This document shows, piece by piece, positions 4,293 through 40,816 of a stretch of 64,000 bases of DNA. The notes beneath the pieces were generated by a model. It was given only the letters and a program-made list of their open reading frames with translations. It did not search any database and was not told the DNA's origin. The translations under genes were made by a program, and so were the position numbers. The DNA comes from Patescibacteria group bacterium (GTDB lineage: Bacteria > Patescibacteriota > Patescibacteriia > UM-FILTER-42-10). The stretch covers positions 7,965-71,964 of the forward strand of contig JBAYGC010000004.1 of assembly GCA_041666845.1 (NCBI GenBank). Direction: 5' to 3'. How positions within the stretch are numbered: the first letter of the stretch is position 1; the number at the start of each line of letters is the position of its first letter.

Positions 4293-4303
4293 ATTTTTCC
4301 TTT

Positions 4304-5017: not shown

Positions 5018-5037
5018 ATTTGTTTTATTATTTAAGC

Positions 5038-15883: not shown

Positions 15884-16013
15884 GATACAATAATATGTTT
15901 AGTGCTTTATTAAATTGGCTGTAGCTTTTCATTAAGATAATTAACTTAATTTGGGATTTTTTGTTCATAGTTTGTTACTCGTTAGGAATATGAAGCTTTA
16001 GCTCCATTTGTAT

Positions 16014-17540: not shown

Positions 17541-17561
17541 ATTATTAAATACATAATCATA

Positions 17562-19028: not shown

Positions 19029-19029
19029 A

Positions 19030-20508: not shown

Positions 20509-20553
20509 ATTTTTTCCCGTGAAGATGTTCTAAATATATCACATGTTGATTAA

Positions 20554-21627
20554 TTATAATTTTCTCACTATTCCTTTATTCGCGTCTACTTCCACCAGAA
20601 CACCGTCTCTAAAAACTTTCGTCGCAACTTTAGTCCCTACAATACAGGGCTTCTTCAATTCTCTTGCGGTAATAGCAGCATGAGACAGCAATCCACCGGA
20701 ATCAGTAATAAAACCGCCCGCCTTCTTCATTAAGGGCAAATACTCCGGCCTGGTCATGCTGGCAACTAAAATATCCCCTTTAGTGAAAGAAGTGATATTT
20801 TTCGGGTCATGAACAATTCTGACATGCCCGACGATTTTCCCCCTTTGTGCTACAGTTCCGTGGAGAACTTCAAATGACTGAACCTTATTAAGAATTGCCT
20901 CAACTTGCTTAAATTGGCGCCCGATAAAATGAATATTCTTATTGGTATTTGCAAACACAGCAAATCCAGGGTTGCGCTTCTGCAGTATCAATTTTGAAGG
21001 AAGTGGTTTGCCGTTCAGATAATCCTCAATTTCCTGGTATGTGCAACATAAGACTAATGATTGCGGCAATTTTTCTTTTTTTCCAATTTGTTTTGCCATA
21101 TTTTCCAGAAACTCTTCGGTTTCAGTCAGCACTGTTTCAGCATACACCCTGGCTTTCTCAAGTAATACAAAATATCTTTTAATCTGATTTTCAGACAATC
21201 CATCGACTATATATTTTACATTAATATGCGGCTGATAATATGCCACCAGCTTCTGAAAATATTCTTCAAATATTTTTGCAGTAAATATCGAACGGCTGTG
21301 AGTGCGAAGAAATTTCCTGATATGGTCCGACTGTTTTTTCAAATTATTGCAGATCTGAATTACACGCTTTGGATTACGGTTTACTTCATCAGCCAAATAG
21401 TGACAGAATTCCTCCCGATCTCTCTGTCGTGCCCATCCTTGGCTTTTTCCATTTTTTACTACTATTACAGTTTCGGGTAAGAAAGGTCTTCCGCGGAACC
21501 TGATCAAGCTGACATATTCCACTGCAAAGTGACTGCAGGAGAAAAGACTCCATTTTCCGGCCCAAATCTGTAACCAGTCCGGTCGGTTCAGTTCATCGGG
21601 TTTTATTTGGACAGTCTTTTTCATCAA
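20554..21627 (-). CDS. PEP-utilizing mobile domain protein, paralog 5 (shorter N-domain)
   Basis: C-terminal GGLLSHAAITARELKKPCIVG. 357 aa. Overlaps paralog 6 by 4 nt. Confidence 0.75.
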   Translation of the reverse strand: MMKKTVQIKPDELNRPDWLQIWAGKWSLFSCSHFAVEYVSLIRFRGRPFLPETVIVVKNGKSQGWARQRDREEFCHYLADEVNRNPKRVIQICNNLKKQSDHIRKFLRTHSRSIFTAKIFEEYFQKLVAYYQPHINVKYIVDGLSENQIKRYFVLLEKARVYAETVLTETEEFLENMAKQIGKKEKLPQSLVLCCTYQEIEDYLNGKPLPSKLILQKRNPGFAVFANTNKNIHFIGRQFKQVEAILNKVQSFEVLHGTVAQRGKIVGHVRIVHDPKNITSFTKGDILVASMTRPEYLPLMKKAGGFITDSGGLLSHAAITARELKKPCIVGTKVATKVFRDGVLVEVDANKGIVRKL

Positions 21628-23249
21628 ATTTTCCTTACTATTCCCTTCGTTGCGTCTACTTCCACTAAATCCCCGTCTTTAAATACTTTGGTGGCAATTT
21701 TTGTGCCGATAACACAAGGGATACCTAGTTCGCGTGATATGATTGCAGCATGGGAAGTTACCCCACCTTGTTCCGTAACAATGGCGGAGGCTTTTTTCAT
21801 TGCCGGTACTATATCCGGATCTGTAGCTATTGATACCAGTACATCACCATTTTTCATTTTATTCATATCTGACGATCTGATAATCAACTTTACTGCGCCC
21901 CTGCCCCTGCCGACACATCCGCATTGTCCCTGTACTTCTGTTATTTCATTATCAATTGCTATTTTAGTTTTTTCGGCCATTTTTTTTGCTTCGTTGCCGA
22001 CAAATACCTTTTCAATTCCCTTCTCGGCATAATACACACAATATTTTGTTCTTTTCTGCAACGCTTTTTTATCCGGTTTCTTTCCCCCGATTAACGCATC
22101 CCCGATTTCTGATTTTAGCATAAATCTTACCTGCATTAATGAAATATCCAGTCGCCTAGCTATTTCTTCCAATACCGGCTGCATATTATAGATTGCATAA
22201 ATCTGGGCAAACCGTCGATAAATCTTGGTTATCATGAAATCAGCCCAACTGGTGAATATTGTTTTCCACGGATTTTTTATCTTTAGTTTTTTGATTAATG
22301 TATTTCTTTTTATAATCAGATTCTTGTGCTCATTGATTTCATCTTTCAATAATTCTACTACATTTATGCCTTCACCAATCAGTTTTACAAGTTCCTTAAG
22401 ATAATAGTCAAAAGTGTAAATACCGTCCTTACCGATCCACATAAACTTCACGTAATGATATTTAATATAATGTTGCTCAATTAGTTTTAGTATCTCCATC
22501 TTAATCTGATCTTTCATCTCCGCTACTTTCTTTTCGAATGCAGCTTCATATTCCGGCGTATGTGTTTCCAGGCCATAGGGTGAAACATTATACTCTAAAA
22601 ATTCCTGATACAGTTCCCGGAACAGTTTTTTGTGATAAGAATCTTTCTGAATTTTTGACGCGATTGTCAAGAACTCCTCGCGCTCAATCTGAATTAGTGA
22701 TTTTTTTTCAGGTACAGTCAGTGTTACTAAATATTCATTAATCTTTTCTTTTCTGACCCCGATTGACTTCAAATATTTTTTAAGCTCTTCAGTAAAGTCG
22801 TTATGAAACATGTCGGCTGCTACCGGCAACCAGCCCCATTGGTAATATTTTGTGTGGATTTCATCATGCCTTTGATAAAAGAACCAAAGTTGCTTTTTGG
22901 TAAGTTTTTCCAAATTTTCCTGGGGAAGATTATGCGCAAAATAACGCAGTTTATCAGACCATTTTACAATTTCTTCATTTACCTCCACCGTAAATTGAGG
23001 ATTTTTGACAAATTTTTCAACCAAATGTTTTCCTTGCTTAAAAGAATCATCTTCTCCGAAATAGAACCACAGATGATATCCTTTATAGATCGCCATTACT
23101 TTTTCGTTGGCAAATCCACCCGGTTTGACAAATTCGTTGGCAAAACAGGAAAGCCAAATTTGCGAAAAAAACAGATCAATATCCGGTATGTCTTCAGCCA
23201 ACATCCATGAGTCTTGGCTATTTAAATGCTTCAATCTTCTTTTTGACAT
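21624..23249 (-). CDS. PEP-utilizing mobile domain protein, paralog 6
   Basis: C-terminal GGVTSHAAIISRELGIPCVIG and GRGAVKLII…GDVLVSIATDP. Confidence 0.8.
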   Translation of the reverse strand: MSKRRLKHLNSQDSWMLAEDIPDIDLFFSQIWLSCFANEFVKPGGFANEKVMAIYKGYHLWFYFGEDDSFKQGKHLVEKFVKNPQFTVEVNEEIVKWSDKLRYFAHNLPQENLEKLTKKQLWFFYQRHDEIHTKYYQWGWLPVAADMFHNDFTEELKKYLKSIGVRKEKINEYLVTLTVPEKKSLIQIEREEFLTIASKIQKDSYHKKLFRELYQEFLEYNVSPYGLETHTPEYEAAFEKKVAEMKDQIKMEILKLIEQHYIKYHYVKFMWIGKDGIYTFDYYLKELVKLIGEGINVVELLKDEINEHKNLIIKRNTLIKKLKIKNPWKTIFTSWADFMITKIYRRFAQIYAIYNMQPVLEEIARRLDISLMQVRFMLKSEIGDALIGGKKPDKKALQKRTKYCVYYAEKGIEKVFVGNEAKKMAEKTKIAIDNEITEVQGQCGCVGRGRGAVKLIIRSSDMNKMKNGDVLVSIATDPDIVPAMKKASAIVTEQGGVTSHAAIISRELGIPCVIGTKIATKVFKDGDLVEVDATKGIVRKI

Positions 23250-25480: not shown

Positions 25481-28027
25481 TTAATAAGCTATTAAGTCGC
25501 TGATAGTTCCAGGAGGTGTGCTATCTACTGGCGGCAGAGGATTAAGCAATATTCTGCCATCATACATACTTAGTGTTACTGAATCCGTCTCACCGCCCGG
25601 ATTGGCAGCAGGATCTTGACCTCCCTCCGTTGCATCAATATATCTGTATGTTCCACCAAGATTAACTGTAGAAGTCGCTATTGTATTATTTAATAATACA
25701 ATGCCATTTTCAAAATCTCTCCGGTATATGCCGGATTGTACTTGAGCATAATCTGTCGTCGGCAAACCCAAATAACCTCTACCGACAGCATAATCATCGG
25801 TAGGCTGTCCGGTTTCAAAATCAACCCAATATTCATCAAACCATGATTGTGACCTGTTACCGTCGGGACTCTGCGGATTGTAATATATTCCGGTCATTAA
25901 ACTGGCGGCAAGTCCATAACGATGATACCGATAATAAGAAGTGCTACCTTGGAGATTTGCATTTTCAAATAAATTATCATTCAGATGTGGTGCCAGTGAA
26001 TTTTCTTCCCAATATTCAAATCCGCGCGTATTGGCCGGATCAAAGTAATAAGTAAGGGTACTTGGCTGAAACACCCTTTCCCACAAATTACCATTGTAGT
26101 CTCCATGATACACCGCATTACCATTACCGACGGTCAGCATGTCTTGACCCAACCGCTCCCGGTTCTTTTGCATTTGCGCGTGCATCCCTTCGTTCCATAT
26201 TTGCGTTGCTTTATCCAAGTCCGCTGAGTTATTCAAATCCTCATCAATACCATCAAAATCAAAGTCACAATACTGCTCATATACTCCCGGATTCTCTACA
26301 TAATCATATAAAAACCAGAAGGAAGGTCCGACAACATCCCACCAAATCCCGTCAAAATAATTCAGCCGGTCAAAGATATCTTTTTCCATGTGTTCCGCTG
26401 AAATGTCTGTATAAGGTGAAATGACATTCAAATTATAAATCAAATTACTGGGGAAACTTGGGTTATAGCAATAAGTACCCGGACTTTCCGAACTTTGCAG
26501 ACGGAGACTGGGATTCAGACGGTCATTGAAAGTCTTAAATGCCACACCGCTGTAATCCTGATAACCGATTGCATCTTTATAAAGAAGTACTGCCGCATTA
26601 GGATTGGCTTCCTTAATTTGACGAATGACATCCGGAACTCCTATGGCAGCTTTAGAAAAATTTACCATATCGTATCTGCTTAAATATTCCACTTCACTAG
26701 TAGTTGGCAAATTACCCCACCACAATTCCGAAATTTTTGGATAGGTCTGCGGAATATCCGGCAACACCCTGAATTGACGGAAAAAACCGTAATCATCCGG
26801 ATCATCTGATGTTCCCTGGCACTTGATGGCAACAGGAAACTGGTCAATAATATCGTCAACTGTCTGTGTAATTGAATGTTCGGTTCCTGCGGGGCCAGTA
26901 GAATTTGCAAGTACACTGTATTGCTCCGGCCTTACTCCGTAACGGCAGGTCATGGGCGATGGTGTTGTAAAACTGATGGTAAATTGCTCCGTATTCGGTA
27001 TAAAATACCCGTCAGGACTGGTCACTGATATCTTATGATCCAAGACGGTCGCACTACTGCTTAAAGCATCTCCGCCACCCGTGACTGTTAAGCCGATTTC
27101 ATCGCCCAGCACAAGATCACCGTCATAATAGATATCACTTTCGGAAAACGGTACGGATCTTTTGTAGTATTCGTGTATCTGATCTGAACTGAGCGGCGCA
27201 TTCAAGAATCTTAGTTCATCAACAATCACATTATTATTACCAACAACTATATTTTCACTACCCGGTACAATAGAGGGAAAATTTTCCCCCTCCGTATAGT
27301 CTCTTCTATAAACCTGTTCACCATTATAATAATATTTAATAACCTTCCCAGAAGCGGACCAAGTAGCGGTTAAGAGTACTGGGATACCTGTCGGCATTAC
27401 CACACGATCATTACCCCCTTGTGCAGAAAGTTCCCAGCCATCAGCATAATCATACATTGTAAATTTGAGTACATTTATCTCATGTACGTTCATCATGAAC
27501 GAATCACCGGTCGAATTATTGTGATATCTGAAAATATACGGACTCGTATCAAACACCGGATCAGTAAGTGGTTTTTTTAATGTCAGCCAGATGTCCATCG
27601 TCCCCTCGCTAAAATCAATATTGTTTGATAGGGAATATTCCGCACTACCGACCATACCCTTGCCAAATTTACCATTTTCGTAAGTAACCGAACCGGATGA
27701 AACCGGATTTTCGCCAGTTACCGTTGCCTGAGAATCATCAAAATGTGCTAAAAAGGTAGTAGGCACTGTGCCATTTTCCGCCACTTCGCTGTTTAGCGAC
27801 CATTCATACAGTGAATCTTCCGTGGCATCGGAATGCGCAACTATTTCACTACCAACGTACGGCTGAACAATATTCAGATAGGAGTCGGTCGCCTGCGTTT
27901 CCGGAGCCAACTTGCCATCTTTCCATAAATAAAAAACCGCCGTTGAAACAGCGGCACTTAAAACAAAAATGACAACTACTCTAGTTATTATACCCCTAGC
28001 CCTGAATGCGCCAATATCACTACGCAT
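25481..28027 (-). CDS. Large secreted/membrane-anchored protein with LamG/concanavalin-like domain
   Basis: N-terminal TM. LamG-like stretch (GTMDIWLTL…VLLTATWSASGKVIKYYYNGEQV…VDELRFLNAPLS). 848 aa. The remainder is unassigned. Confidence 0.55.
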   Translation of the reverse strand: MRSDIGAFRARGIITRVVVIFVLSAAVSTAVFYLWKDGKLAPETQATDSYLNIVQPYVGSEIVAHSDATEDSLYEWSLNSEVAENGTVPTTFLAHFDDSQATVTGENPVSSGSVTYENGKFGKGMVGSAEYSLSNNIDFSEGTMDIWLTLKKPLTDPVFDTSPYIFRYHNNSTGDSFMMNVHEINVLKFTMYDYADGWELSAQGGNDRVVMPTGIPVLLTATWSASGKVIKYYYNGEQVYRRDYTEGENFPSIVPGSENIVVGNNNVIVDELRFLNAPLSSDQIHEYYKRSVPFSESDIYYDGDLVLGDEIGLTVTGGGDALSSSATVLDHKISVTSPDGYFIPNTEQFTISFTTPSPMTCRYGVRPEQYSVLANSTGPAGTEHSITQTVDDIIDQFPVAIKCQGTSDDPDDYGFFRQFRVLPDIPQTYPKISELWWGNLPTTSEVEYLSRYDMVNFSKAAIGVPDVIRQIKEANPNAAVLLYKDAIGYQDYSGVAFKTFNDRLNPSLRLQSSESPGTYCYNPSFPSNLIYNLNVISPYTDISAEHMEKDIFDRLNYFDGIWWDVVGPSFWFLYDYVENPGVYEQYCDFDFDGIDEDLNNSADLDKATQIWNEGMHAQMQKNRERLGQDMLTVGNGNAVYHGDYNGNLWERVFQPSTLTYYFDPANTRGFEYWEENSLAPHLNDNLFENANLQGSTSYYRYHRYGLAASLMTGIYYNPQSPDGNRSQSWFDEYWVDFETGQPTDDYAVGRGYLGLPTTDYAQVQSGIYRRDFENGIVLLNNTIATSTVNLGGTYRYIDATEGGQDPAANPGGETDSVTLSMYDGRILLNPLPPVDSTPPGTISDLIAY

Positions 28028-28124
28028 AGTTTTTTTATACTCATATTACGTGATTAATGATAACAGAAAAATCGCATTTTGTCAATTTAGTGCTACTTAT
28101 GAAAATTTTTGCAAAATCTATATT

Positions 28125-28796
28125 TTATAGTTTTCTCGTTTTTTCAAAACCTTTTTTCCAATCCAAAAAATTCTTCCAGATATTCTTGTCTTTATGCCAA
28201 TTATCCCGATCCGCTTCATATGCCTGTTCCAATGCCCAAGCAATTTCGCTGAAAAATCCTATCTTTCTGAAATAATGGTCTCGGTTTTTTTTGTTAAAAA
28301 GTGCTTCGAACTTGATTTTACGCTTGCTAATCCATCCAGGATATTTTCCGCCGGTATCATCTAGAATAACAAGTACTTCTTGAATATTTAATTTTCCTTT
28401 GACATTCTTAATGAATATTTCCTTGCTTGCTCCAGTGGCAATTACATCATCAACCAAAACCGCTCTTGCACCTTTGCTATATGCTCCCTCAATCAAAGAA
28501 TCCGTGGAATAACCTTTAGTCTTTTTTCTAATGTAAACCCAAGGCAATTTTGTTTCCAAGGCTGTAGCGGCAGCTAAACTAATTCCACCAGTTGCCCCAC
28601 CGGCGATTACTTCAATCTTAGGTCTGATATTTCTAATAATTCTGGCAAATTCTTGTGCTACTGCCTTTAGTACAACTGGATCAGACAAAGCCGCTTTAGG
28701 ATCCCAATAAATCGGAACAATCCGGTCTGCTTGGATTTTAACACCAGGAACATAAAAACGCTTTTGGGCTAATATTTTGATTACCTCATTTTTCAT
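28125..28796 (-). CDS. Orotate-phosphoribosyltransferase-like type I PRTase, paralog 1, with W/K-rich C-terminal tail
   Basis: PRPP-binding motif AVLVDDVIATGAS. OPRT-like core (IAGGATGGISLAAATA…YIRKK…IEG). Tail DNWHKDKNIWKNFLDWKKGF. Confidence 0.75.
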   Translation of the reverse strand: MKNEVIKILAQKRFYVPGVKIQADRIVPIYWDPKAALSDPVVLKAVAQEFARIIRNIRPKIEVIAGGATGGISLAAATALETKLPWVYIRKKTKGYSTDSLIEGAYSKGARAVLVDDVIATGASKEIFIKNVKGKLNIQEVLVILDDTGGKYPGWISKRKIKFEALFNKKNRDHYFRKIGFFSEIAWALEQAYEADRDNWHKDKNIWKNFLDWKKGFEKTRKL

Positions 28797-29422
28797 TTTT
28801 TTATCCTACTTCCCCAGTTAATTGGATCTTTAAGATACTGTTTAATCGCTAAAGTATCTTCGAGATCAAAAATGTTGTGTTTAATACCAAAATTGGCAAT
28901 TTCTTGAAAAGTTACTAGATAGTGAATCTTTATTTTACTTGCTTTCTCGATTTTTTTTGCCAGTTCCTTTTTGACTATTGAAACTACTATAACATCTTCA
29001 ACTTTTGCCTTGTTTTTCCTAAGTACTTTGACGGCATTGTTAATATTGCTTCCAGTCACCATCATATCATCTATCAGTACCACTTTCTGGCCAGGCTTGA
29101 GAATCCCTTCAATTTGTTTTTTTGTACCATTTGTTTTTGGTTTTTTTCTGACGTAAATCATTGGTTTGACAAGTGCTCGGGCGAGAATACCGGCAAAAGC
29201 GATGCCTGCCGATTCATTTCCCGCAATTATATTATAATGCTTTGGCAGTAACCCCTTTAATTGATTAAAAACTATTGATAGTTCCTTGGGGTATGATAAT
29301 AGATTTCTATGGTCAAGATAAATAGGTTGATATAGCCCCGCTCCACCTAATAGCGGCTTTTTGTAATCACAATAAACATTTTGCGCCTTGTATAATGCCT
29401 TTATGATTTTTGGTTTGTTCAT
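28793..29422 (-). CDS. OPRT-like PRTase, paralog 2
   Basis: VVLIDDMMVTGSN PRPP motif. Overlaps neighbouring genes by 4 nt on both sides. Confidence 0.7.
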   Translation of the reverse strand: MNKPKIIKALYKAQNVYCDYKKPLLGGAGLYQPIYLDHRNLLSYPKELSIVFNQLKGLLPKHYNIIAGNESAGIAFAGILARALVKPMIYVRKKPKTNGTKKQIEGILKPGQKVVLIDDMMVTGSNINNAVKVLRKNKAKVEDVIVVSIVKKELAKKIEKASKIKIHYLVTFQEIANFGIKHNIFDLEDTLAIKQYLKDPINWGSRIKK

Positions 29423-30999
29423 AGCTTTTGGATTATCCCTCTTTCTGCATCAACCAATATTTTATCACCGTCGTTTAGTAATTTATCACAATCCGTCACG
29501 CCAACCACGCACGGTATTTTCATTTCTCTTGCCACGATTGCAGTATGACAAGTCAATCCACCCGCTCCTCCGATTAATGCTGATGCTTTTTTCATGGCCG
29601 GTACTAAATTCGGATTGGTATTGTGCGCTACCATAATATCCCCTTGCCGCATCTTCTTCATATCTGCCGGAATGTTTACTATCTTTACCACCCCATCAAC
29701 CCTGCCAGGATAGGCGCAAGTTCCAGAGAGTTGATTTTTGCTTTTTTTGGATTTTTCTATGCTTATGGTCTTCATGAATTTTTCCGCTTCACTCCCGGTT
29801 ATAACTCTATTGATATACCCCGCCTGTCCCTTGCGCTTCCAATAATCAACCGCCTTTTTAATCCTTTCATTCAGTATGTGAACATCCACTTTGCCAACTT
29901 TCAAAATGGTTATTATTTCACTCGGCTTTAAAGCCTGCATCTGGCTGATCGACAGTCCAAACCTTTTTCCTACCTCTTTAAAAATTTTCTCATAATAATA
30001 CATTGCGTTGTATAGTCCATCCTTCCGGTAACTCTTCATATAAACCATTCCCTGAGCCATCTTCAGAATATCTTTTTCATGTTCAGAAAATCCGATTTGA
30101 CTAATGAGCTTTTTCTGTTCTTTCAATAAATCATCTCGATCATTTTGTTTTTTACTTAACATTGCTTGTGGATTTTTCTTTCCACGCAATAATGCCTGCC
30201 AACGAGCCAAATAATCCTTCAACGGATAAGCCGGACCTTTATATTGATATGTTAATGGACTAAATTTTTGATAGTGTCTGATGATATCCTTATAAATTTG
30301 CCTATCAATCCTTTCTAAATTATTCATCAAACTTTGCAAACTAGACTGAATAAATACCTCCTTAAGCTTTCTTCTTCTAACGATTGCTGATGCAATTTTC
30401 AGAAAACTTTCTTCTTCTTTGTATAACAAACTACGTTTTGTTGGTGAGGTAAGAATTGAGAAAGCTATAGAAATACTATGTTTTAGATTAGTATTTTTCA
30501 ATTTTTTTACAAACATCTTCATAATCGCCTTAGTAACCAGCTGGTCCCCGGCATCGGATTGCCAAGTTACACCTAACGCATATCCATGACTAAGCATGTG
30601 AACATTTCTAATTTCTTTCATCAGTTTCGCAATTTGCATGTTACTCATGCTTGATAAATTCATTCTTTTCACTCTGTTCATTATCTTGAAGAATTCAGCA
30701 GTCGCTTCCTCAACATCTTTAATGATTTTTAAAGCCCATCTCGGTTTCTTTATTACCTTCTTTGCTAGGAATCCGCATTGCGCTTCAAATTCTTTCTGCA
30801 CAAAGATCATTTGAGAAGAATCACCATCAAAATAAGTAATATATTCCCGCGCAAAACTCCCCAATCCTTGTTTTGGGTACACAGAAAAAAATGCTTCACT
30901 TGGAATTTCCATCATGAAAATAGTATTCTGGGGGATATCTTCAACTACTTCCCATATTTTTTTACCAATTAACCCAGATTTCATGTTTTTCTTTTTCAT
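29419..30999 (-). CDS. PEP-utilizing mobile domain protein, paralog 7 (start trimmed to Met at 30999; ORF-track N-terminus runs through a tRNA)
   Basis: C-terminal GGLTCHTAIVAREMKIPCVVG and AYPGRVDGVVKIV…GDIMVAHNTNP. The N-domain shares the Y.YKGPAYP motif with the other paralogs. The upstream 183 nt of the tracked ORF overlap tRNA-Arg and are rejected. Confidence 0.75.
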   Translation of the reverse strand: MKKKNMKSGLIGKKIWEVVEDIPQNTIFMMEIPSEAFFSVYPKQGLGSFAREYITYFDGDSSQMIFVQKEFEAQCGFLAKKVIKKPRWALKIIKDVEEATAEFFKIMNRVKRMNLSSMSNMQIAKLMKEIRNVHMLSHGYALGVTWQSDAGDQLVTKAIMKMFVKKLKNTNLKHSISIAFSILTSPTKRSLLYKEEESFLKIASAIVRRRKLKEVFIQSSLQSLMNNLERIDRQIYKDIIRHYQKFSPLTYQYKGPAYPLKDYLARWQALLRGKKNPQAMLSKKQNDRDDLLKEQKKLISQIGFSEHEKDILKMAQGMVYMKSYRKDGLYNAMYYYEKIFKEVGKRFGLSISQMQALKPSEIITILKVGKVDVHILNERIKKAVDYWKRKGQAGYINRVITGSEAEKFMKTISIEKSKKSKNQLSGTCAYPGRVDGVVKIVNIPADMKKMRQGDIMVAHNTNPNLVPAMKKASALIGGAGGLTCHTAIVAREMKIPCVVGVTDCDKLLNDGDKILVDAERGIIQKL

Positions 31000-31005
31000 T
31001 CTAAT

Positions 31006-31080
31006 TGGTGCCCCCATGAGGAATCGAACCTCAATCTTAGGCTCCGGAAGCCCACATTCTATCCGTTGAACTACAGGGGC
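31006..31080 (-). tRNA. tRNA-Arg (anticodon CCG), CCA encoded
   Basis: The reverse complement reads GCCCCTG-TA-GTTC-AACGGATA-GAAT-G-TGGGC-TTCCGGA-GCCTA-AGAT-TGAGG-TTCGATT-CCTCA-TGGGGGC-A-CCA. This gives a cloverleaf with a 7-bp acceptor stem (two G-U pairs), U8, a GTTCGATTCC T-arm, U33 and anticodon CCG. Confidence 0.85.
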
Positions 31081-31234
31081 ATGTTGAAATATTAATCTAC
31101 TACTTGCCTTCCGAAGCTCAAATCTAATTTGAGCGAAAGAAGGAGCTACAGGCGCATTCTTGACGCAGCTTAATATTAACACGTTTATATATACTGGATC
31201 TATTGCCCGTCCGCTTTAATACTATTTTCAACTA

Positions 31235-31930
31235 CTATAACTCGTCTTTTTTAAGTGATTTTTTCCAAGCCAAAAACATCCGCCAACTCTTTTTATCTTT
31301 ATGCCAGCCGGTAGGATCAGCCAAATAAGCTTTCTGGACAGTTATTGCTTCAACAGGCAGTTTTTTAGCTTTCCTCACATAGTCAAGCCATTCGTGGCGG
31401 TTATAAAGATTATCAAAAGTAATTCCCATTTTCTGTAATCGTTTTTTAAAATTCTGATTCCTTGCATGCCAAGAATCATTGATTACCACCACGTGCTTCA
31501 CCCTAATCCCGTCCTTAGCGCAATCCTGAATCGCTTTCAATACCGTACTCCCTAAACCGATTACATCGTCTACTAAAACCCCAACGGAATTCTTTTGGTA
31601 GTCCCCTTCCACCCATTTTTTTCGCAAGGTAGGCTTTCTCTTTTTGTTTAAATAGGCAAAGGGAATTCTGGTTTTTAGACTGGTTGCCAAAGCAATGGGA
31701 ATGCCAGCCATAGGAATACCCACGATTAAATCTACTCTTTTCTTTCGATTGTATTTATTAATAATCTTCCCCAATTCCTCCGCGATTATCTCCATTACCT
31801 CAGGATGTGAGTAAAGGCATCTACTGTCATTAAAGAAAGGTACAATCGCTCCAGTAGTCGACTGTCTGAAGGGACCGACCGAGATTTTCATTTTGGCTAC
31901 TGCATTTAATACTCGTTTATTCTCGCTCAT
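31235..31930 (-). CDS. OPRT-like PRTase, paralog 3, W-rich tail
   Basis: GVLVDDVIGLGST. Tail GWHKDKKSWRMFLAWKK. Confidence 0.7.
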   Translation of the reverse strand: MSENKRVLNAVAKMKISVGPFRQSTTGAIVPFFNDSRCLYSHPEVMEIIAEELGKIINKYNRKKRVDLIVGIPMAGIPIALATSLKTRIPFAYLNKKRKPTLRKKWVEGDYQKNSVGVLVDDVIGLGSTVLKAIQDCAKDGIRVKHVVVINDSWHARNQNFKKRLQKMGITFDNLYNRHEWLDYVRKAKKLPVEAITVQKAYLADPTGWHKDKKSWRMFLAWKKSLKKDEL

Positions 31931-32631
31931 ATCTTATCAAAACTTTCATCAAAAATTAAGTTCTTTTCTACTACACCTAATTGTTTGAATTCCTTCCAAT
32001 TTTTGGGATCCTTTTGCCAGCCGAAAGGATCGTCAAGCATTTTGATAATGAGTCTGCAAAAATCCTTTTCTAGAAATTTCTGATCTGCAGCATATTTCAT
32101 TATACCCGGCCAAGTTATTAGTGCGATAAATTTATATTTTCTACTCTTTCGGAGCCAATTTTGTGCCTTGCGGTATTTGAGTCCGTAAAATGCATCCATA
32201 ATCACGATAATACCCTTAACCTTCAAACCAGCTGCTTCTAATGTTTTAACTATCTCCTTCTTATCACCACCAGTAGACATAGCATCATCCACTATTACCA
32301 CACTCTGACCCTTATGATACATGCCCTCGATAACGTTATTTGTATTGTACCCCTTCGGTTTTTTTCTCAGATAAAGAAAGTCTCTTTTTAGAGTACTGGC
32401 TACCGCTACACCGAAAGGCACCCCTGCGGCTTCCCGGCTGGCGATTAAATCCGATTTTATAGTCGCCGCTGCTTTTGCCAGTTCTTGGGTCAGTATGCTA
32501 AAAACCCTGTTTCGGGAAAAAGCATTACGATGATCGGGATATAGGGGAAAATGTCCGATACGCGGACTTATAAAATTCCCAGCAATAAAATATCCTTTGA
32601 ATAACAATGCTTTTGCCGCCCGTTTATTCAT
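31927..32631 (-). CDS. OPRT-like PRTase, paralog 4, W-rich tail
   Basis: VVIVDDAMSTGGD. Tail GWQKDPKNWKEFKQLG. Confidence 0.7.
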   Translation of the reverse strand: MNKRAAKALLFKGYFIAGNFISPRIGHFPLYPDHRNAFSRNRVFSILTQELAKAAATIKSDLIASREAAGVPFGVAVASTLKRDFLYLRKKPKGYNTNNVIEGMYHKGQSVVIVDDAMSTGGDKKEIVKTLEAAGLKVKGIIVIMDAFYGLKYRKAQNWLRKSRKYKFIALITWPGIMKYAADQKFLEKDFCRLIIKMLDDPFGWQKDPKNWKEFKQLGVVEKNLIFDESFDKI

Positions 32632-32697
32632 ATAATTATCCTGAAATTAGCTACTTAGCAAGTTTTTCCTGCAATGAACCCACAGGATAAATTTACT

Positions 32698-33372
32698 CTA
32701 TTTAGCTGAATCAGTAAAACCTTCAGATTTTGCCAGTGAAACAAATTCGTTCCACTTTTTATTATCTTTCTGCCATATCTTCAAATTCTTCCATATATCA
32801 AACATATAATCACCGAGTTTCTTCGAGATATATCCGTTCTTAACCATGTATTTGACCAGATCATTATGTTTTACGAATGAGTGAATTCTTATTTTATTCT
32901 TTGCATAAAATGGTATGTACTCCACACCAGCATCATAAAGTACCAAAACGTCTTTTACAACCAGACCTTTTCTCTGTAATGTCTTAATGAAGCGTTCTTT
33001 GGTACTGCCGGTCCCGATTCCATCATCAACTACCAAGACATTCTCACCTTTTCTATACAACCCTTCCAGTAAAGTCGCTGTCGAACCGTCTTTGCGCGTT
33101 TTCTGCCGGAGATAAATAAAAGGTTTGTGTGAAGCAAGCGATACGGCCATAGCTAGAGGTGTGCCTGATACCATCGTGCCTGCTACCAGATCAATATTTT
33201 TTCCCTTCATAAAATTAGCAATTTCTTCTGACACAACTTTCATTTTATCCGGGTGGGAATAAAGACGCTTGCTGGTAATATAAATCGGAGATGGTTCGCC
33301 CAGTGAGCCGTAAAACTTGCCAAAAACAAAAAAACCAAAGTCACTCAGTAGCTTGGCGATACGTTTATTCAT
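32698..33372 (-). CDS. OPRT-like PRTase, paralog 5, W-rich tail (start taken at MNKRIAKLL, as in the other paralogs)
   Basis: VLVVDDGIGTGST. Tail IWQKDNKKWNEFVSLAK. The ORF track extends 11 codons further upstream, to 33405. Confidence 0.7.
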   Translation of the reverse strand: MNKRIAKLLSDFGFFVFGKFYGSLGEPSPIYITSKRLYSHPDKMKVVSEEIANFMKGKNIDLVAGTMVSGTPLAMAVSLASHKPFIYLRQKTRKDGSTATLLEGLYRKGENVLVVDDGIGTGSTKERFIKTLQRKGLVVKDVLVLYDAGVEYIPFYAKNKIRIHSFVKHNDLVKYMVKNGYISKKLGDYMFDIWKNLKIWQKDNKKWNEFVSLAKSEGFTDSAK

Positions 33373-33516
33373 AAAAACAATTAGTATTAATACATTAGAT
33401 AGCAACTACTATCATAACGGATTTTCCAAAATTTGAAAACCCCATAACCTACTATCTTCTACGCTTGGTATTTGAATTCGGGAATTAACTCCCACACTTG
33501 ATACTAAGTGTAGAAG

Positions 33517-33545
33517 TTGACAAAAATGGGAAATAGGTGTATAGT
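33517..33545 (+). promoter_or_regulatory. Consensus-like sigma70 promoter (TTGACA-17-TATAGT) for the GC-rich island 3 operon
   Basis: TTGACA at 33517-33522 and TATAGT at 33540-33545. Confidence 0.5.
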
Positions 33546-33561
33546 TGCCTGTTAAAATTGA

Positions 33562-33582
33562 ATACTCTTGTTGGAAGAGTAT
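33562..33582. promoter_or_regulatory. Perfect 8-bp/5-nt-loop palindrome (atactctt gttgg aagagtat) just downstream of the -10; candidate operator
   Basis: Seen directly in the sequence. Positioned +17 to +37 relative to the -10 box. Confidence 0.4.
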
Positions 33583-33711
33583 AGACAGTCTGTTAAATGT
33601 GAAGTAATTCGTTTTCAGCAGAGTGCCTATTTTACTGGCACATTGACATAGAACACAACCAGTCCTGAAATACTGGCTGGCACAGAATCACCACTATCCC
33701 GGAGGTAGATA

Positions 33712-34299
33712 ATGACGAAGCGAGTCTTTATCCAGGGTGATCGCGATCCCAGTGTGGATCTCGCCGCATGCGCGCTGGAGATTGCTCAGCTCCTTAAGCA
33801 GAGGGGTTGGGAAGCGAACGTCGGCGCGTACGGCGGACTGGTTCGGATCTTCGAGGAGTCTGGCATGCGCTGCCATGCGCATGTTATAGCACCTCGCGGT
33901 AGAGAAGTCCAGTTCAGCGAACGAATCGTCGCATCGGTCACAGACTGCAACCAACTCGTTCGGTCTCTCCCGGCGGAGGTCCGCTGGGGAGGCGAAGCCG
34001 ACCAGATTCTCACCTGGGGTCTTCGTCTCGGCATCTGGATGGCTCATTCCGATGCCTTCATCTTCTTCGCCGGCCGGGAAGGTACGATGGCCCACCTTAT
34101 CCCGGTTCTCGCCTGGAACCGCAAGGTTCTGGCCAAAGAAGGGCGGGCCAAGAAGGTTGTCCTGTTCGGGTGGTTACGCAGTCAGATCAACGCCCTGCGG
34201 GCACTCGGTCTGTATTCGCCAGCCGATACGTGGCTGGCCTTCTACCCGGCCTTCCGCTGGAGCGAAGAGCTGACCGTCAACTTCCTCACCGAGGAGTGA
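33712..34299 (+). CDS. GC-rich LOG/SLOG-like (TIGR00730 / lysine-decarboxylase-like Rossmann) protein
   Basis: GGAGG ribosome-binding site 6 nt upstream. The motifs VGAYGGLVRIFEES and SDAFIFFAGREGTMAHLIPVLAW resemble the LOG-family GGGxGxMG and SDAFIALPGGxGTxEE…W motifs. About 60% GC on the plus strand within AT-rich surroundings. 195 aa. Confidence 0.4.
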   Translation: MTKRVFIQGDRDPSVDLAACALEIAQLLKQRGWEANVGAYGGLVRIFEESGMRCHAHVIAPRGREVQFSERIVASVTDCNQLVRSLPAEVRWGGEADQILTWGLRLGIWMAHSDAFIFFAGREGTMAHLIPVLAWNRKVLAKEGRAKKVVLFGWLRSQINALRALGLYSPADTWLAFYPAFRWSEELTVNFLTEE

Positions 34300-34303
34300 C
34301 AAC

Positions 34304-34435
34304 ATGGGCTTCATCAAGCCTGTCGCGCTCCTGCTTTCGCTGGTATGCCTGCTGGTAGCGACGAAGAACCATCGCAGTGATGGATCTCTCGCCACGATCG
34401 GCACCCTGCTCCTTATCGTTGGCGCAATGGCCTAA
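34304..34435 (+). CDS. 43-aa double-TM hydrophobic peptide co-transcribed with the SLOG-like gene
   Basis: GAGGAG ribosome-binding site 7 nt before ATG. MGFIKPVALLLSLVCLLVATKNHRSDGSLATIGTLLLIVGAMA has two hydrophobic segments. It is GC-rich and below the ORF-track size cutoff. Confidence 0.4.
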   Translation: MGFIKPVALLLSLVCLLVATKNHRSDGSLATIGTLLLIVGAMA

Positions 34436-34461
34436 AGCCTGGCGCCCCGCATCCTCTTCCC

Positions 34462-34514
34462 CCCCGCGCATCAAACTGATTAATTTCAGGGCGATGCGCG
34501 GGGTGTTTATTTTG
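34462..34514. terminator. Large inverted repeat (ccccgcgcatc … gatgcgcgggg, 11-bp stems, 20-nt loop) + T-rich tract; bidirectional terminator
   Basis: Seen directly in the sequence. It closes the GC-rich island and abuts the stop of the convergent kinase gene. Confidence 0.45.
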
Positions 34515-35553
34515 TCAAAATACTTGCATACCAATCGGCCGTTTTGTTTTTACTTCTGGTTATTAAAGCCAATCCGGTTTCTCTGATTTTTGCCTCCAAT
34601 CGTGGCCGGTTTTTGTAATATGATCCAGACCGGCCGTCGGTTCTGGAGACCATATATATCCCGGTCCAGACGGTAGTTCGTTTGATGACCCCCTTAATTT
34701 CATGAGCGGATATACCAAAAGATTTCATTGTTTTAACGTATGCTTTTATAAAATTTTTGATAAAATATCGGCAATCTTTGGATACTGCTACTTTTTCTTC
34801 CAGTATTTTTATTAGCCAATGTGCTAAAAAAATTCCATTATCGAGGGCTGGGTCATTTTCCATGGCAAAATCAAAATCCAAAACAGAAAAGCCATGCTTG
34901 CTGACAAAAATATTTCTGTATACTGGATCACCCCAAACAAAAGATTTCTTTGCTCTATCAGAATTTTTAACAAATTTTTTGATTGCTTCTTCTTTAATTA
35001 ATTTTTTAGCACCGAACATAACCCAATCCCGCCATATGAAATTTACTTTATTTTGATTGGAAATATTACTAAATAGCAGAGGCATGTTGTAGGTTCTCCC
35101 GTGCATCTTTCCAAAAAAATTACCAAACTCTTCTGCTAACTGCGGTTGCACTTTGTCTCTATTAAATTCTTCAATTAGTATTTTCTTTTTTCCTTGGATA
35201 TCATCCAACACTAAAATATAGTTGTGATAATCAACATGCAAAACTTGTGGTACGATCTTTTTCCCGATTAGTGACTCTAAAAATTTCAATTTCCTACCTT
35301 CAATTACAGTTCTTGCCGGATTTATTCGAATCTTTCGGTCTCTTTTTACATACCCATCAGACTGCTTCAAGTATAATATTTTCTTACCTTGATTAGTAAG
35401 ACATTCTGCTCGATAAACAAAAAATGCATTTGAATATTTTGTTATTTCGGTAACATTTATTACCTTTTTTATTTCAAAAATGAATCCATCTACCGCCTTG
35501 GCATTCAAATATCCAGCAATATTTTTTTCAGATAAGATTGTCCTTTTATTCAT
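34507..35553 (-). CDS. Aminoglycoside-phosphotransferase/choline-kinase-fold (APH / MTR-kinase-like) small-molecule kinase
   Basis: Catalytic-loop-like VWGDPVYRNIFV (HGDxxxxN analogue) and VLDFDFAMENDPALDNG (DFE motif). 348 aa. Confidence 0.55.
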   Translation of the reverse strand: MNKRTILSEKNIAGYLNAKAVDGFIFEIKKVINVTEITKYSNAFFVYRAECLTNQGKKILYLKQSDGYVKRDRKIRINPARTVIEGRKLKFLESLIGKKIVPQVLHVDYHNYILVLDDIQGKKKILIEEFNRDKVQPQLAEEFGNFFGKMHGRTYNMPLLFSNISNQNKVNFIWRDWVMFGAKKLIKEEAIKKFVKNSDRAKKSFVWGDPVYRNIFVSKHGFSVLDFDFAMENDPALDNGIFLAHWLIKILEEKVAVSKDCRYFIKNFIKAYVKTMKSFGISAHEIKGVIKRTTVWTGIYMVSRTDGRSGSYYKNRPRLEAKIRETGLALITRSKNKTADWYASILTK

Positions 35554-35726
35554 GATATATTCATCTTAACGCTTGTTTTACCGCTTGTAAACACACTAAA
35601 ACATATCTACTATTCTTTAAATTATGTGAACAGCAGAGCTTGCCAAATGCAGTTGATCACAACTACACAGACTTGCTTGCCCCCATATTAGACTCTGCAC
35701 CTACATCTTCTCAAGTAAAAAACAGG

Positions 35727-35752
35727 CTTCTTGGCCTGCTTTTATAACTCGC
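35727..35752 (-). terminator. Rho-independent terminator (caggc ttcttg gcctg flanked by A6/T4)
   Basis: On the minus strand it reads gcaggccaagaagcctg tttttt, downstream of gene 35758..37107. Confidence 0.5.
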
Positions 35753-35757
35753 TAAAA

Positions 35758-37107
35758 CTATACCTGATTCGGTATGGAAAGTTTAACGCCCTCATCTTTA
35801 ACTTCCTGCCACACGTATTTTCCGCTGGCCAAATCGCCGTACACCATCCCCTGCACAGAAGTCTGTCCTTTTTCTACTAACATATTTTCGAGCTGTACAC
35901 CGAATCTGGCAGATTCAGCATCATCTAAACCCATTTTTTCTTTGAATATATTTTGTAAAAATACGCTGAAGTAGGGTGCGGTAAATCCGTTGCGTTGAAA
36001 ATCAGCTACTACTTCGGGCTTATATTCATTCTGCAAAATACTTTTTGTAAATGCACTGATTCTTTCGTTCAATTTCAATTCTGCGACCAGATCCCCTTTT
36101 TCCGCGATAATCCGCAAAGCCGCGATTGCCTTATATTTATCTTTTTGGTCAACTGCTGACATGAATGTTTCAACAATTGCACTTAAATTACCATTGTTCA
36201 GCTGTTCCAGGCCGGTTTCTGCATCATGAATCATAATCCTTTCTCCTTCGGAACCGAGGAATTCTTCAATCAGTTTTTCACGCTGTTTTTCCGGATCGAT
36301 AGTTTCGGCAGAAACTGGCTTTACTCTATCAACTATCTCTTCTTCAACCATATGCCCGGTAGTTGGAGTATAAAGTGGGGTCGGAAAACGGAGATAATCA
36401 TAAACCCGGATGACTTTCAGTATCAAATTTTTTTCCGCCGGAGCGAGGTTGCGCACATTTTTACCCTGGTTGATGTAGCTCACTTCTTCCACGGGCGAAT
36501 GCAAACTGGAAGAATTAAAGAATGCTTCAAAATCAACCAGCCAATTACCGACTGTCGACTCCTTCGTCTGCTTCAGGCCGTCATCTAAATTATATGCGCC
36601 ACCGATTGGCATTTTACCGATCTTTTCTTTGTTTTCCCTGATACTTTGAATCATGCGTTGACGTAAAACAACCAGCAAATCGAATGGGAAGCCTTTGAAT
36701 ACCATCATATTATAAAACAGCTCTTCAACCGGCAACTCCCAATAAAATGCTTTAACCAGAAAGTTTCGTAATAGCCAGGTGATTTCGAGCTCGCCACGGA
36801 CAGGCATTGTACGGAACATGCCATAAATCACCAAGTCCTGGTATTTCAGATATAGTTTCGGATCCTGTTCCTGGAAACCTTTGATCAGATTCTGCAGGAC
36901 GAAAATCATTTCCGATGAATCGCCCAATTCCATACCAAACTGCGGATCAATGAAAGTAATAAAAAGCCTTTCATATATTTTCTCATTTTTCAGATCTTCA
37001 GCGGATATTTGGCGGATGGAATCCGGAGTAAACAAAATAATTCGTTCCTGAACAATTTTATTTACGATATCTTCACGTAATGGAATTGAGTTTAAATCCA
37101 TGATCAA
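35758..37107 (-). CDS. Hypothetical protein
   Basis: 449-aa ORF with no recognised motifs. Upstream neighbour of the large membrane protein. Confidence 0.5.
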   Translation of the reverse strand: MIMDLNSIPLREDIVNKIVQERIILFTPDSIRQISAEDLKNEKIYERLFITFIDPQFGMELGDSSEMIFVLQNLIKGFQEQDPKLYLKYQDLVIYGMFRTMPVRGELEITWLLRNFLVKAFYWELPVEELFYNMMVFKGFPFDLLVVLRQRMIQSIRENKEKIGKMPIGGAYNLDDGLKQTKESTVGNWLVDFEAFFNSSSLHSPVEEVSYINQGKNVRNLAPAEKNLILKVIRVYDYLRFPTPLYTPTTGHMVEEEIVDRVKPVSAETIDPEKQREKLIEEFLGSEGERIMIHDAETGLEQLNNGNLSAIVETFMSAVDQKDKYKAIAALRIIAEKGDLVAELKLNERISAFTKSILQNEYKPEVVADFQRNGFTAPYFSVFLQNIFKEKMGLDDAESARFGVQLENMLVEKGQTSVQGMVYGDLASGKYVWQEVKDEGVKLSIPNQV

Positions 37108-37137
37108 TTTGATATTAAGTAACTGAAAATTAAACTA

Positions 37138-40100
37138 TTATTCCCCGCTGTCCGGGTTAGGATTCGGCTCTGTCGGAGGTTCTGGAGTAGGTTCGGAGGG
37201 TGTCGGGGGAACAGCACTGGACTCAGCAGAAGCATCAGTTGAGCTTGTCGGTCCCTGTGGCTCACTGTCTTCCGCTGACTTTCCGCTTGTATCGGGTGTC
37301 TCCGGTTTTGGCGCATCAGATTCGGAAGCAGTCGGAGAACTTGGTTCCGCGGATGGCTTTGATGTGGTGCCCGAAGACTGTCTCGGAGTATTATCACTTG
37401 GTTTGGTACCGGGTTGAGGACGCCCTGTTCGAGGTCGAGGTCCCGGTTTTCCCGGGGTCCGCGGAGCTGGCTTTGGAACAGATCCCTCTGCTGGCTTAGA
37501 AGATCCGGAGTCGGGAGCATCATCTTTTGGTTTTTCTTCACCTTTGAATTTATCCGCTTTTGCTTCTTTCATTAGTTTAACCAACTGCACCAAAGCTTGA
37601 GTCATGATTTGCTGTGACATTCGATCAGTAGCATTGCCACTGGATACCTGATCAAAATTGTGTTGAACAGTCTCAACTGCATTCCGCATACCTTTGCTCT
37701 TTTCCGATTCTTCCATTTTATCAATATTCTCCTTCATGGTAGACATTAGTCGATACATGGCAGCACTCATTTCCGTAAACGACTGCGGATCGATCACCTT
37801 ATCCAAACTGGCAAACTGACCACTCAGATTATCAAGTTGTCCCGCCAATTCACTAATATCTCCCAGAGCTCTGTCATCATCAGGGACAATACCGGCAAAT
37901 TCCGGTCCTTTCAATTCTTTATACGCATTTTCGATCTCGGTATTAATACTTCTTATTCGTTCAACTTCCGACGCGACAACTTCCTTCATTTGAGCATCAT
38001 CCAAAAAGTCCACCGGCTCTCCACCTTTTTTCGGAGTTTTGGACCAGACACCTCTATTGTATGTATAGTTGTGTTCATTTGCTTCGATGGGCTTCTTTTC
38101 ATCAATATTGGTTTGCATTTCTTCCATACTCTGTTCAACTGTTTTTGCTGGTGCAGCTTCTTCTTTAACCGGAGGTTTATATCCATTTTCTAATGCTTTG
38201 GCTAATTCAGGACCCGGAGCAGGTGGACTCATTCTGGACAAATCAACTGGAGCATTGTCTTTAAAGTCCTTACCATCAGTAACTTTATCACGATATTTAT
38301 AATAATCCCCATCTATTGGAATTGGTGCTGTAGGATTTTTTGAACCTCTATAAGCACTATTCCATAAAGCCCTGACCATTGCTGGATTTAAATCGTAAGT
38401 CTTCTTAAATTGCTTATAGGCAGCTGTTTCTTCTGTTTCTGTTCCATCCTTTTCTTCTTTTTTTGTTTTTACAAGATTTCCGTTTTCATCAAACAACCGA
38501 TCTTCCCAATTTTCGTCACTGATCCCATTATGACTACCAACCAGAATCTGCGATAACCGCGCCTGGAAATGATGCGCTTCCGGAATCATGGAAGGTGTTA
38601 GCACCTCACCCAAAAATCTTTTCTGGGAAACAGACATGAGATTCGCGTCGGTAGAAAAATCCCAACCATCCTCAATATCTTCACCTTTCTCATTTTTCCT
38701 GTTTTGTTTATATACAAGCGAGCGCATAGCATGGGGAGCCACGCCCTGCATGAAGGCACGCGAGCCTCTCTTGCGTGCCTCGCCTTTTACCTCTCCGATT
38801 CTTTCATCCTCATTCATAATCCGGTATTTGCCGGTTTTTGCATCCAAGGTAGCCATCGTCTGCTCCCAATGGCCGACATTGCGGGACGACTGGCTGATCG
38901 TATACATGGTACGCAAAGCAGTCTGCTCTTCATGTGAGGCCTTTCCCGCATTTATATTTGATTCTTTAGTAGCTCTTTTCATATAAGCACTTCTTTGTTT
39001 AGCATCTTTTTCAGGATCAAGTTTGTCGTAATTGACTCCTTCTGCATCAGCGATCTTTTTAGCAATAGTGGTTGGGTCAAATTTAGCACGATCCAACTGC
39101 AAATAACCCATTGTAAACTGCTTGAATCCTTCGTCATCCATTACTTTAGCTTTTTCATAACTATCAAAACCGAATTGCTTGGCTGTTGGGTCATCCTTTA
39201 TCAGACCGCTGGAAAGAAAATGGGCATAGACATCATCCAGGTTACCACGGGACGCGGCTAAGTTAATTACTGCTTCGCGAGAGCGCTCACCCTTGATACC
39301 ACCCATACGCATCGCTCGTTCCGCCAGTTCCGCCATTTTTTCTTTACCAGCGCCGGATTCTGAAATCTCTTTCAGCATTTCACTCTCATACTCACCTACC
39401 ACCGCACTGCGTGCCATTTCCGCTCTCGACATGGCTGCACCTTTAGCTGAAACTTTAAGATTACCCCGTTTCTGACGGAAAAAGCTTGGTATCCATTCGT
39501 CCATAACCTTTTCGGCCATCTGTTCTCCTTTACCGGCTATTTCCCTGTTTTGCTGTGTCGCCAAACGCTCACCTCTCTGACCAATACCCTTCCAGTACGA
39601 GGGACTCAAAATCGGCGCTTTTTCCGTAATCTTTCTGCCGATCGCACCGTAAGTTCGCTTCGCAAAGCGGTTGTTGAAAGGCTTCTTTAAAGTCTTCATG
39701 CCCATTGATTTCAGCTTGTCCGGGAACCGACCGACTGTCGATCCGCCCATCACACCGAATTCCTGCGTCAGCATAATACCGGTCAAAAGCAGTGCTATAG
39801 TAATAATATAATTAAACATGTTCTGAGTATTCATGATTGCTGAAGCACCTTTTGGCAATTTAGCAGCATCGGGAGCGGTGGGATCAGCAATAGTCCCATC
39901 ACTAACTCCTATATCAGATAAATCAATCGGCGCTCCCGCACTGGTAGAAATAACGGAAAGTGACAACCATAAAAAGAAAGCTAGGACCGGACCAGCCGTG
40001 AGATTTTTACCCAGCTCCGTCCACCAACGGGAAGCGTAACGCGAAGTGTTGGGCAAAACCGATGCTATATAGGCAACCGGGGAAAGAATCACCAAGATCC

Positions 40101-40800: not shown

Positions 40801-40816
40801 TATTGATTGATAAAGT

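Follow-up and report, generated by a model that had tools for sequence, protein, structure and literature searches.

Five diverged orotate phosphoribosyltransferase-like paralogues in a Patescibacteria locus and their proposed role in base salvage

Five genes between positions 28125 and 33372 of a 64-kb stretch of Patescibacteria DNA (hereafter the window, 64,000 nucleotides in full) encode type I phosphoribosyltransferases (PRTases), here called A to E, that derive from orotate phosphoribosyltransferase (OPRT). This OPRT-derived family is real, conserved and so far undescribed, and in the window it is expanded to five ancient paralogues. The explanation that we favour, at a probability of about 55%, is that the five are catalytically competent PRTases that descend from OPRT, are no longer PyrE, and work with diversified specificities in a lineage-specific base-salvage module dependent on phosphoribosyl pyrophosphate (PRPP). 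From sequence comparisons we propose that the family is centred on the Patescibacteria and that its substrate would be something other than orotate in most or all cases. Full-text literature searches turned up nothing on this OPRT-like family or on multi-paralogue OPRT-like genes in the Candidate Phyla Radiation (CPR). The genes of the array and its two neighbours are as follows.

PRTase E: 32698-33372, minus strand; 224 aa from ATG; tail WQKDNKKWNEFVSLAKSEGFTDSAK; PF00156 31.9 bits
PRTase D: 31927-32631, minus strand; 234 aa; tail WQKDPKNWKEFKQLGVVEKNLIFDESFDKI; ATGA overlap with C
PRTase C: 31235-31930, minus strand; 231 aa; tail WHKDKKSWRMFLAWKKSLKKDEL; loop YLNKKRK
tRNA-Arg (CCG): 31006-31080, minus strand; called by ARAGORN; Rfam tRNA 58.9 bits
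Rph-like protein: 29419-30999/31017, minus strand; 524-532 aa; PF00391 84.5 bits
PRTase B: 28793-29422, minus strand; 209 aa; tail-less, ending DPINWGSRIKK
PRTase A: 28125-28796, minus strand; 223 aa; tail WHKDKNIWKNFLDWKKGFEKTRKL; ATGA overlap with B
Divergent LOG-fold protein: 33712-34299, plus strand; 195 aa; motif R..SDAFIFFAGREGTMAHL; 60% GC
APH-fold kinase: 34507-35553, minus strand; 348 aa; PF01636; first gene of the conserved module

All five proteins matched PF00156 at 31.9-44.6 bits, against a gathering threshold of 26.3, which places them in the type I PRTase superfamily, and the best NCBIfam match of each was an OPRT model. The five OPRT-like type I PRTase genes recognised by the first-pass annotation are thereby confirmed. 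None of them scores as PyrE, however. On the pyrE equivalog model TIGR00336 (cut-off 106.8 bits) they reached 71.6 (A), 89.3 (B), 59.6 (C), 82.8 (D) and 74.1 (E) bits, whereas the tail-less metagenomic OPRTs P0018, P0087 and P0101, which served as controls, passed with 148, 121 and 151 bits, respectively. By model scores B is the nearest of the five to canonical OPRT: its best NCBIfam match was NF001729, on which it scored highest of the five, with 128.6 bits against a cut-off of 245. The Apt, Hpt and Upp models gave only 15-52 bits on A-E, far below their cut-offs, the sequence affinity being to OPRT, and the purR, GfcR and comF models gave only weak matches, likewise far below their cut-offs. 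No other pyr gene was present among the ORFs (open reading frames) scanned in the window. A defence system was considered and rejected, as the PADLOC models PRTase_III-A and ShosT gave partial matches of 17-29 bits over the generic PRPP loop only and their partner genes were not present. Some family members carry the JGI annotation "orotate phosphoribosyltransferase"; such automated labels are probably wrong, which matters for the metabolic reconstruction of Patescibacteria.

Pairwise identity among A-E is 26-34%, and each has separate orthologues elsewhere, at 40-87% identity overall. Those of A include P0026 (82%) and P0024/L012 (58%), and C has many at 50-77%. The D orthologues are P0032 (49%), L007 (65%), L014 (63%), L011 (59%) and L017 (47%), and those of E are L007 (87%), L014 (81%) and P0020 (80%). 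B is matched by P0060 (53%), P0044 (50%) and P0100, at 46-53%, all tail-less like B itself. Orthologues were found in Candidatus Uhrbacteria, Candidatus Kerfeldbacteria and unclassified Patescibacteria metagenome-assembled genomes (MAGs). Judged from these identities the five are ancient, maintained paralogues. Because they share only 26-34% identity while each has its own orthologues, they are not the simple dosage duplicates that had been named as the case that would undo a claim of diversification.

Many metagenomic database proteins of 430-470 aa (P0021, P0022, P0025, P0028 and others) match the family profile over two separate stretches. P0021, P0022 and P0025 look like two tandem PRTase domains per chain, are closest to the tail-less B and have canonical W..GF ends; others of this size match a PRTase only once, in their C-terminal half, and may carry a different domain fused to it. 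The tandem proteins were not used as evidence for heterodimers, being B-like or canonical-tailed and not clearly of the same family. At the marine Patescibacteria locus L007 the A orthologue (14509-15106) is broken into ORFs of 115 and 63 aa by a frameshift, a pseudogene event or an assembly error, and B is missing, with another PEP-utilizers gene in its place.

An AlphaFold2 model of C, built from a 70-sequence family alignment, had a mean predicted local distance difference test score (pLDDT) of 95.5 and a predicted template modelling score of 0.91. Its best Foldseek matches in the PDB were OPRTs, including Leishmania and human UMPS and the streptococcal, Burkholderia and Bacillus enzymes, with template modelling (TM) scores of 0.73-0.80 at the top of the ranking and E values down to 2e-16. 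With PyrE of the Gram-positive/UMPS type (2aee, 3dez, 2wns, 3qw4) the family has in common the fold (TM 0.71-0.80), the PRPP-binding Asp-Asp loop, the Lys-rich flexible loop and a hood helix that ends in D-P-x-x-W. The Asp-Asp PRPP motif is invariant, and all five have a K/R-rich loop ahead of E-G and retain most basic flexible-loop residues; in OPRTs, which are dimers with shared active sites, such residues from the neighbouring subunit bind PRPP (PMC5430920). In C the catalytic-loop Arg is replaced by Asn, and the phosphate loop reads G-L where T-T is usual. From these motifs we infer that A-E are probably competent catalysts.

The base pocket is where the subfamilies part. The N-terminal region of OPRT is a mobile hood that closes the crevice for orotate/orotidine monophosphate (PMC5430920). 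In an alignment of 34 sequences, covering the five subfamilies and controls, the hood strand and the position of E. coli D155-R156 read as follows.

Controls: hood strand S-G-x-x-x-P-[IV]-Y-x-D-x-R; D-R retained in 3 of 4 (P0103 lacks it)
A: hood strand IQxxRxxPxY; DDT at the D155-R156 position (orthologues GDN, DDS)
B: hood strand GGxGxxQPIY; S-[IT]-V at the D155-R156 position
C: hood strand STTGAxVPFFNDSR; [ND]-[PS]-W at the D155-R156 position
D: hood strand SPRIGxFPLYPD (close-orthologue consensus); D-A-x at the D155-R156 position (N-T-W in one orthologue)
E: hood strand GSLGxPSPIYITSK; [DN]-A-[GE] at the D155-R156 position

The positions aligned with E. coli S-G-x-K26-S and D155-R156 are replaced in all five subfamilies and conserved within each, and the Asp-Arg found in E. 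coli and in tail-less controls is absent. We take E. coli Lys26 and Arg156 to be orotate-binding residues of OPRT. The aligned base-pocket residues are therefore not identical among the five paralogues; they are subfamily-specific. Enzymes that diversified in substrate but kept their chemistry would be expected to show such a pattern, and it fits, though it does not prove, the diversification suggested by the first-pass annotation.

Four of the PRTases (A, C, D and E) carry a C-terminal W-x6-W-x2-F tail, with 23, 22, 29 and 24 residues, respectively, beyond the first Trp of the motif. The four tail strings quoted earlier match the translations exactly, but the tail is not common to all five, as was then thought: B stops 6 residues past that Trp. 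In pairwise HMMER alignments the PyrE proteins of S. pyogenes and S. mutans (2aee, 3dez) finish at the same Trp (...DQVNWQQ / ...TWQ), and the three controls that pass TIGR00336 end 2-9 residues past it, in keeping with the initial view that canonical OPRTs lack the tail. The tail is thus, by alignment, a genuine extension past the canonical OPRT C-terminus, and its motif did not arise by chance. A search of 1.84 billion representative proteins supplied the best 150 matches, and among their 96 single-domain cluster representatives the strict form W-x6-W-x2-[FYLW] occurred near the C-terminus in 32, with looser variants in more. The family consensus is [YF]-x-x-[DN]-P-x-x-W-[QH]-[KE]-[DN]-x-x-[KN]-W-x-x-[FY]; the motif-start Trp is nearly invariant in the 70-sequence alignment, and W209, W216 and F219 are invariant across 16 C orthologues. 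Across subfamilies only the aromatic W/W/F triad is conserved in the tail and the lysines are not, the net charge being +5 in the A and C types, 0 in D and +1 in E. Amphipathicity of the tails is moderate, with a maximum hydrophobic moment of 0.49-0.63. In many family members the last residues form a short G-x-hydrophobic C-terminus (KTGKL, SKSGI and GKFI, for example).

The AlphaFold2 model of C, a monomer, predicts the tail as a further helix (residues 213-225) beyond helix 193-204 and the loop with D-P-x-x-W209, at pLDDT 96-98 over residues 201-220. In our experience, a free membrane-binding helix is usually predicted at lower confidence. Because the triad is conserved while the charge is not, and because the helix is confident in a monomer model, we favour packing of the tail within its own subunit. 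In the E. coli and Salmonella OPRT structures the C-terminal helix is part of the hood; this position of the canonical C-terminus, together with the pLDDT, suggests that the tail is a packed extension of the base-binding hood, with the W/W/F triad holding the added helix in place.

Most of the information on function comes from gene context, which the first-pass annotation overlooked. In the window the LOG-like gene and the kinase gene lie immediately upstream of the array, and a kinase, a LOG-like protein and 2-5 of these PRTases are found together in nine independent loci of Patescibacteria type.

The window: Patescibacteria MAG
L007: marine Patescibacteria
L004: Candidatus Uhrbacteria
L005: Candidatus Kerfeldbacteria
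L011: unclassified
L012/L013: "bacterium" MAGs
L014/L015: reached via a kinase homologue of 60% identity
L016: reached via a kinase homologue of 37% identity
L017: reached via a kinase homologue of 36% identity

All three of the examined kinase homologues, at 36-60% identity, have tail-bearing PRTases beside them. Among PDB structures the kinase family profile comes closest to B. subtilis methylthioribose (MTR) kinase 2olc (E=6e-12), and the kinase scores 44 bits on the MTR-kinase model TIGR01767 (cut-off 275), which leaves it outside that family. Several rows hold further enzymes. In L014 the row also contains a bona fide PRPP synthetase (280 bits on TIGR01251, cut-off 113), another LOG, a nicotinate PRTase (NAPRTase) and a protein of the Carb_kinase family; L012 has two PRTase genes followed by NAPRTase, as overlapping genes (302 bits on TIGR01513, cut-off 297.4); in L016 a canonical LOG adjoins the kinase; and L011 adds Maf and a HAD hydrolase. 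Because these added members serve to supply PRPP or to salvage nucleotides and NAD, we favour a salvage module. The multi-paralogue operons contain a kinase and a LOG-like protein in place of the pyr genes of PyrE, and resemble Apt, Hpt/Xpt, Upp and NAPRTase operons in their proposed PRPP-dependent base salvage, being co-operonic with a bona fide NAPRTase in L012 and with NAPRTase and PRPP synthetase in L014. No transporter gene was consistently adjacent across the neighbourhoods inspected.

The 195-aa neighbour (33712-34299), present in all nine loci, has no significant Pfam match, the LOG family PF03641 reaching only E=0.23. In the PDB, a 9-sequence profile of it nevertheless found LOG-family entries and no others (best E=0.018), and in a Foldseek search with its AlphaFold2 model (pLDDT 85.6) the 17 best and most of the top 36 matches were LOG/YgdH/"lysine-decarboxylase-like" structures, at TM scores of about 0.55-0.68. 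By its model the protein shares the Rossmann-like fold of LOG and of the PpnN (YgdH) nucleotide 5'-monophosphate nucleosidases, and its motif R...SDAFIFFAGREGTMAHL can be aligned with LOG R...SDAFIxxPGGxGTxxEL. In contrast to these enzymes it reads xGREGTxAHL there, so that the Glu of PGGxGTxxE is lost (GREGTxAH), and its gene, which runs antisense to the operon, forms a GC-rich island.

This island is sharp, with 60% GC and a third-position GC content (GC3) of 0.70 against 33-40% GC and GC3 of 0.30-0.41 in the neighbours. Most related loci show such an excess at their orthologue, and in 6 of 8 it is marked, at 11-18 points over the locus GC. The gene is truly coding, as codon-position identities run position 2 > 1 >> 3. 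The antisense (operon-strand) RNA of 33712-34506 has a folding z of -4.4, from 20 shuffles only. At L004 a Trp-repressor-family protein (PF01371; 8469-9092) lies between two PRTase genes and is a possible local regulator.

The array also includes a gene for a protein related to rifampin phosphotransferase (Rph). Its sole Pfam domain is the swivelling PEP-utilizers phospho-histidine domain, and its residues 307-522 align to residues 653-864 of rifampin phosphotransferase 5fbs/5hv1, a portion that comprises a piece of the substrate domain followed by the swivelling His domain. It resembles Rph and PigC-type dikinases in this part and differs from them in three respects: the ATP-grasp domain is missing, there are seven paralogues, and a PPDK_N protein is encoded separately. 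Six further Rph-like paralogues lie at 14375-23249 (minus strand), each with an N-terminal region of roughly 280-470 aa and a PEP-utilizers domain, like the C-terminal two-thirds of rifampin phosphotransferase, and the single stand-alone PPDK_N ATP-grasp protein lies 22 kb away at 6877-7824 (minus strand). Together the set looks like a split, expanded dikinase system. Orthologues adjoin PRTases in L007, where the gene (67%) is flanked by the orthologues of C and A, and in L011 (43%; overlapping gene starts). Six of the nine loci lack the gene, and it was rejected as a universal partner; we treat its product as an accessory. L011 also has a similar run of five Rph-like genes.

On the salvage reading, each ancient paralogue would use PRPP to phosphoribosylate its own distinct nucleobase or related heterocycle. 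Nucleoside monophosphates would be split into bases and ribose 5-phosphate by the divergent LOG-fold protein, and a ribose-type intermediate would be the substrate that the MTR-kinase-like enzyme phosphorylates, with PRPP synthetase and nicotinate PRTase supplied from the same operon in some genomes. The C-terminal extension would be the family hallmark, an extra amphipathic helix whose W-x6-W-x2-F aromatics pack back onto the hood subdomain, and it may enlarge or stiffen the lid over the base pocket. By most accounts CPR/Patescibacteria do not synthesise nucleotides de novo, and their nucleotide acquisition and interconversion are poorly defined. A testable gene set for nucleotide acquisition in CPR bacteria is offered by the conserved operon, in which several diverged enzymes of the OPRT fold, with their probable hood extension, are joined by the MTR-kinase-like and LOG-fold proteins. 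A bolder version of this scheme, which we regard as improbable, is self-contained nucleotide remodelling. In it the LOG-derived and ribose-1-kinase-like enzymes would dismantle host nucleotides, the PRTases, maybe as ATGA-coupled obligate heterodimers, would rebuild a full set of nucleotides or non-canonical ribotides, and the split Rph-like proteins would be phosphoryl donors.

Several observations weigh against base salvage by non-orotate PRTases. Streptococcal PyrE likewise has no Asp-Arg, so that loss of this pair, which might have been taken as proof against orotate, does not by itself exclude it. The specificity argument stands on alignment positions read with the residue roles of E. coli and Salmonella OPRT. 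The LOG-like protein, its motif lacking the Glu, may bind rather than cleave nucleotides. Finally, simple salvage offers no evident role for the Rph-like genes found beside PRTases at three loci.

These last genes are the main reason to keep a different explanation, doubtful in our estimate, in which the cluster makes a specialised nucleotide-like metabolite (a signal, cofactor, antibiotic or modified nucleotide). The PRTases would phosphoribosylate unusual heterocycles; intermediates would be phosphorylated by the kinase together with the Rph-like dikinase halves, and trimmed or bound by the LOG-like protein. This would account for the linkage of one Rph-like subfamily to PRTases in three loci, with direct gene overlap in the window and L011, for the seven paralogues and lone PPDK_N protein, and for the non-canonical LOG motif; moreover, the characterised relatives Rph and PigC/RedH act on secondary metabolites. 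However, six of the nine loci do without Rph-like genes, no biosynthetic scaffold genes are present, and the partners that recur are housekeeping PRPP synthetase and NAPRTase. A regulatory role seems far more remote. Here the proteins would be non-catalytic PRTase-fold regulators or nucleic-acid binders, similar to PyrR, PurR, GfcR or ComF, with the Lys/Trp tail contacting RNA or DNA. The weak purR, GfcR and comF matches, the Trp-repressor-like gene among the L004 PRTases and the basic A and C tails would suit it, but those matches are far under their cut-offs, the catalytic Asp-Asp and loop lysines are conserved, no DNA-binding domain is present, and the tails of D and E lack basic character.

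The first-pass annotation had proposed that the tail is a common docking or membrane-interaction element. We consider it quite unlikely that it is an amphipathic helix for a membrane interface or a partner, coupling the enzyme, for example, to a base transporter or to other PRTases. The moderate amphipathicity, the strongly basic, Trp-rich A and C tails and the short G-x-hydrophobic C-termini of many members would be in line with such a helix, as would the translationally coupled gene pairs and the dimeric OPRT architecture with shared active sites (PMC5430920). Yet what is conserved is the three aromatics, the basic character fades in D and E, the helix is predicted with core-like confidence in the monomer, and no transporter gene is consistently adjacent. 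It is also highly improbable that the genes are PyrE copies that simply raise dosage, or that B is a true PyrE accompanied by four degenerate copies. OPRT models fit all five best, JGI labels some members accordingly, and B is tail-less and the most OPRT-like; but the paralogues are only 26-34% identical, every one of them, including B, falls under the pyrE cut-off that the controls pass, each subfamily is conserved with intact catalytic motifs across distant genomes, and the window has no other pyr gene.

According to the ORF list, all genes between 28125 and 33372 lie on the minus strand. They are transcribed in the order E, a 66-nt spacer, D/C, tRNA-Arg(CCG), the Rph-like gene and B/A, with ATGA start/stop overlaps at the D/C, Rph-like/B and B/A junctions. 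The two PRTase pairs with 4-nt overlaps that had been described (D/C and B/A) are borne out. The lone gene, E, is parted from D by the 66-nt spacer and not by a tRNA gene, and the array is not a plain tandem one, since the 1.6-kb Rph-like gene and the tRNA gene split C from B. A mechanical 587-aa ORF (29419-31182, minus strand) traverses the tRNA gene; the true start of the Rph-like gene is downstream of that ORF's start, at 31017 or 30999, the former of which would share 12 nt with the tRNA 3' end. An Rfam scan of 27900-35900 at E<=1 detected tRNAs only and no riboswitch, and a scan of seven related loci at gathering score gave the same result, so that no hint of a ligand came from this side. 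In these seven loci no tRNA was detected at the array position, L007 having none between its C orthologue and the PEP-utilizers gene, and the tRNA-Arg was rejected as a component of the system.

Upstream of the kinase (35758-50161, minus strand; L011 1-8332; L014 1-6834) synteny is conserved at 22-40% protein identity. The block includes a protein of >3000 aa (PA14 in the window and L014; CBM/dockerin matches in L011), one of 1100-1500 aa (weak TrbL_3 match in L011) and one of about 450 aa without a family. At 2397-5475 (minus strand), adjoining the PPDK_N gene, the window encodes a type IV secretion-like VirB4/TraG P-loop ATPase and a PrgI-family protein. The leucyl-tRNA synthetase (53772-56816, minus strand; 1014 aa) has an apparent inserted alpha/beta serine-hydrolase domain (PF06821, residues 252-431, E=5e-19), which follows the first half of the catalytic domain and precedes the editing domain.

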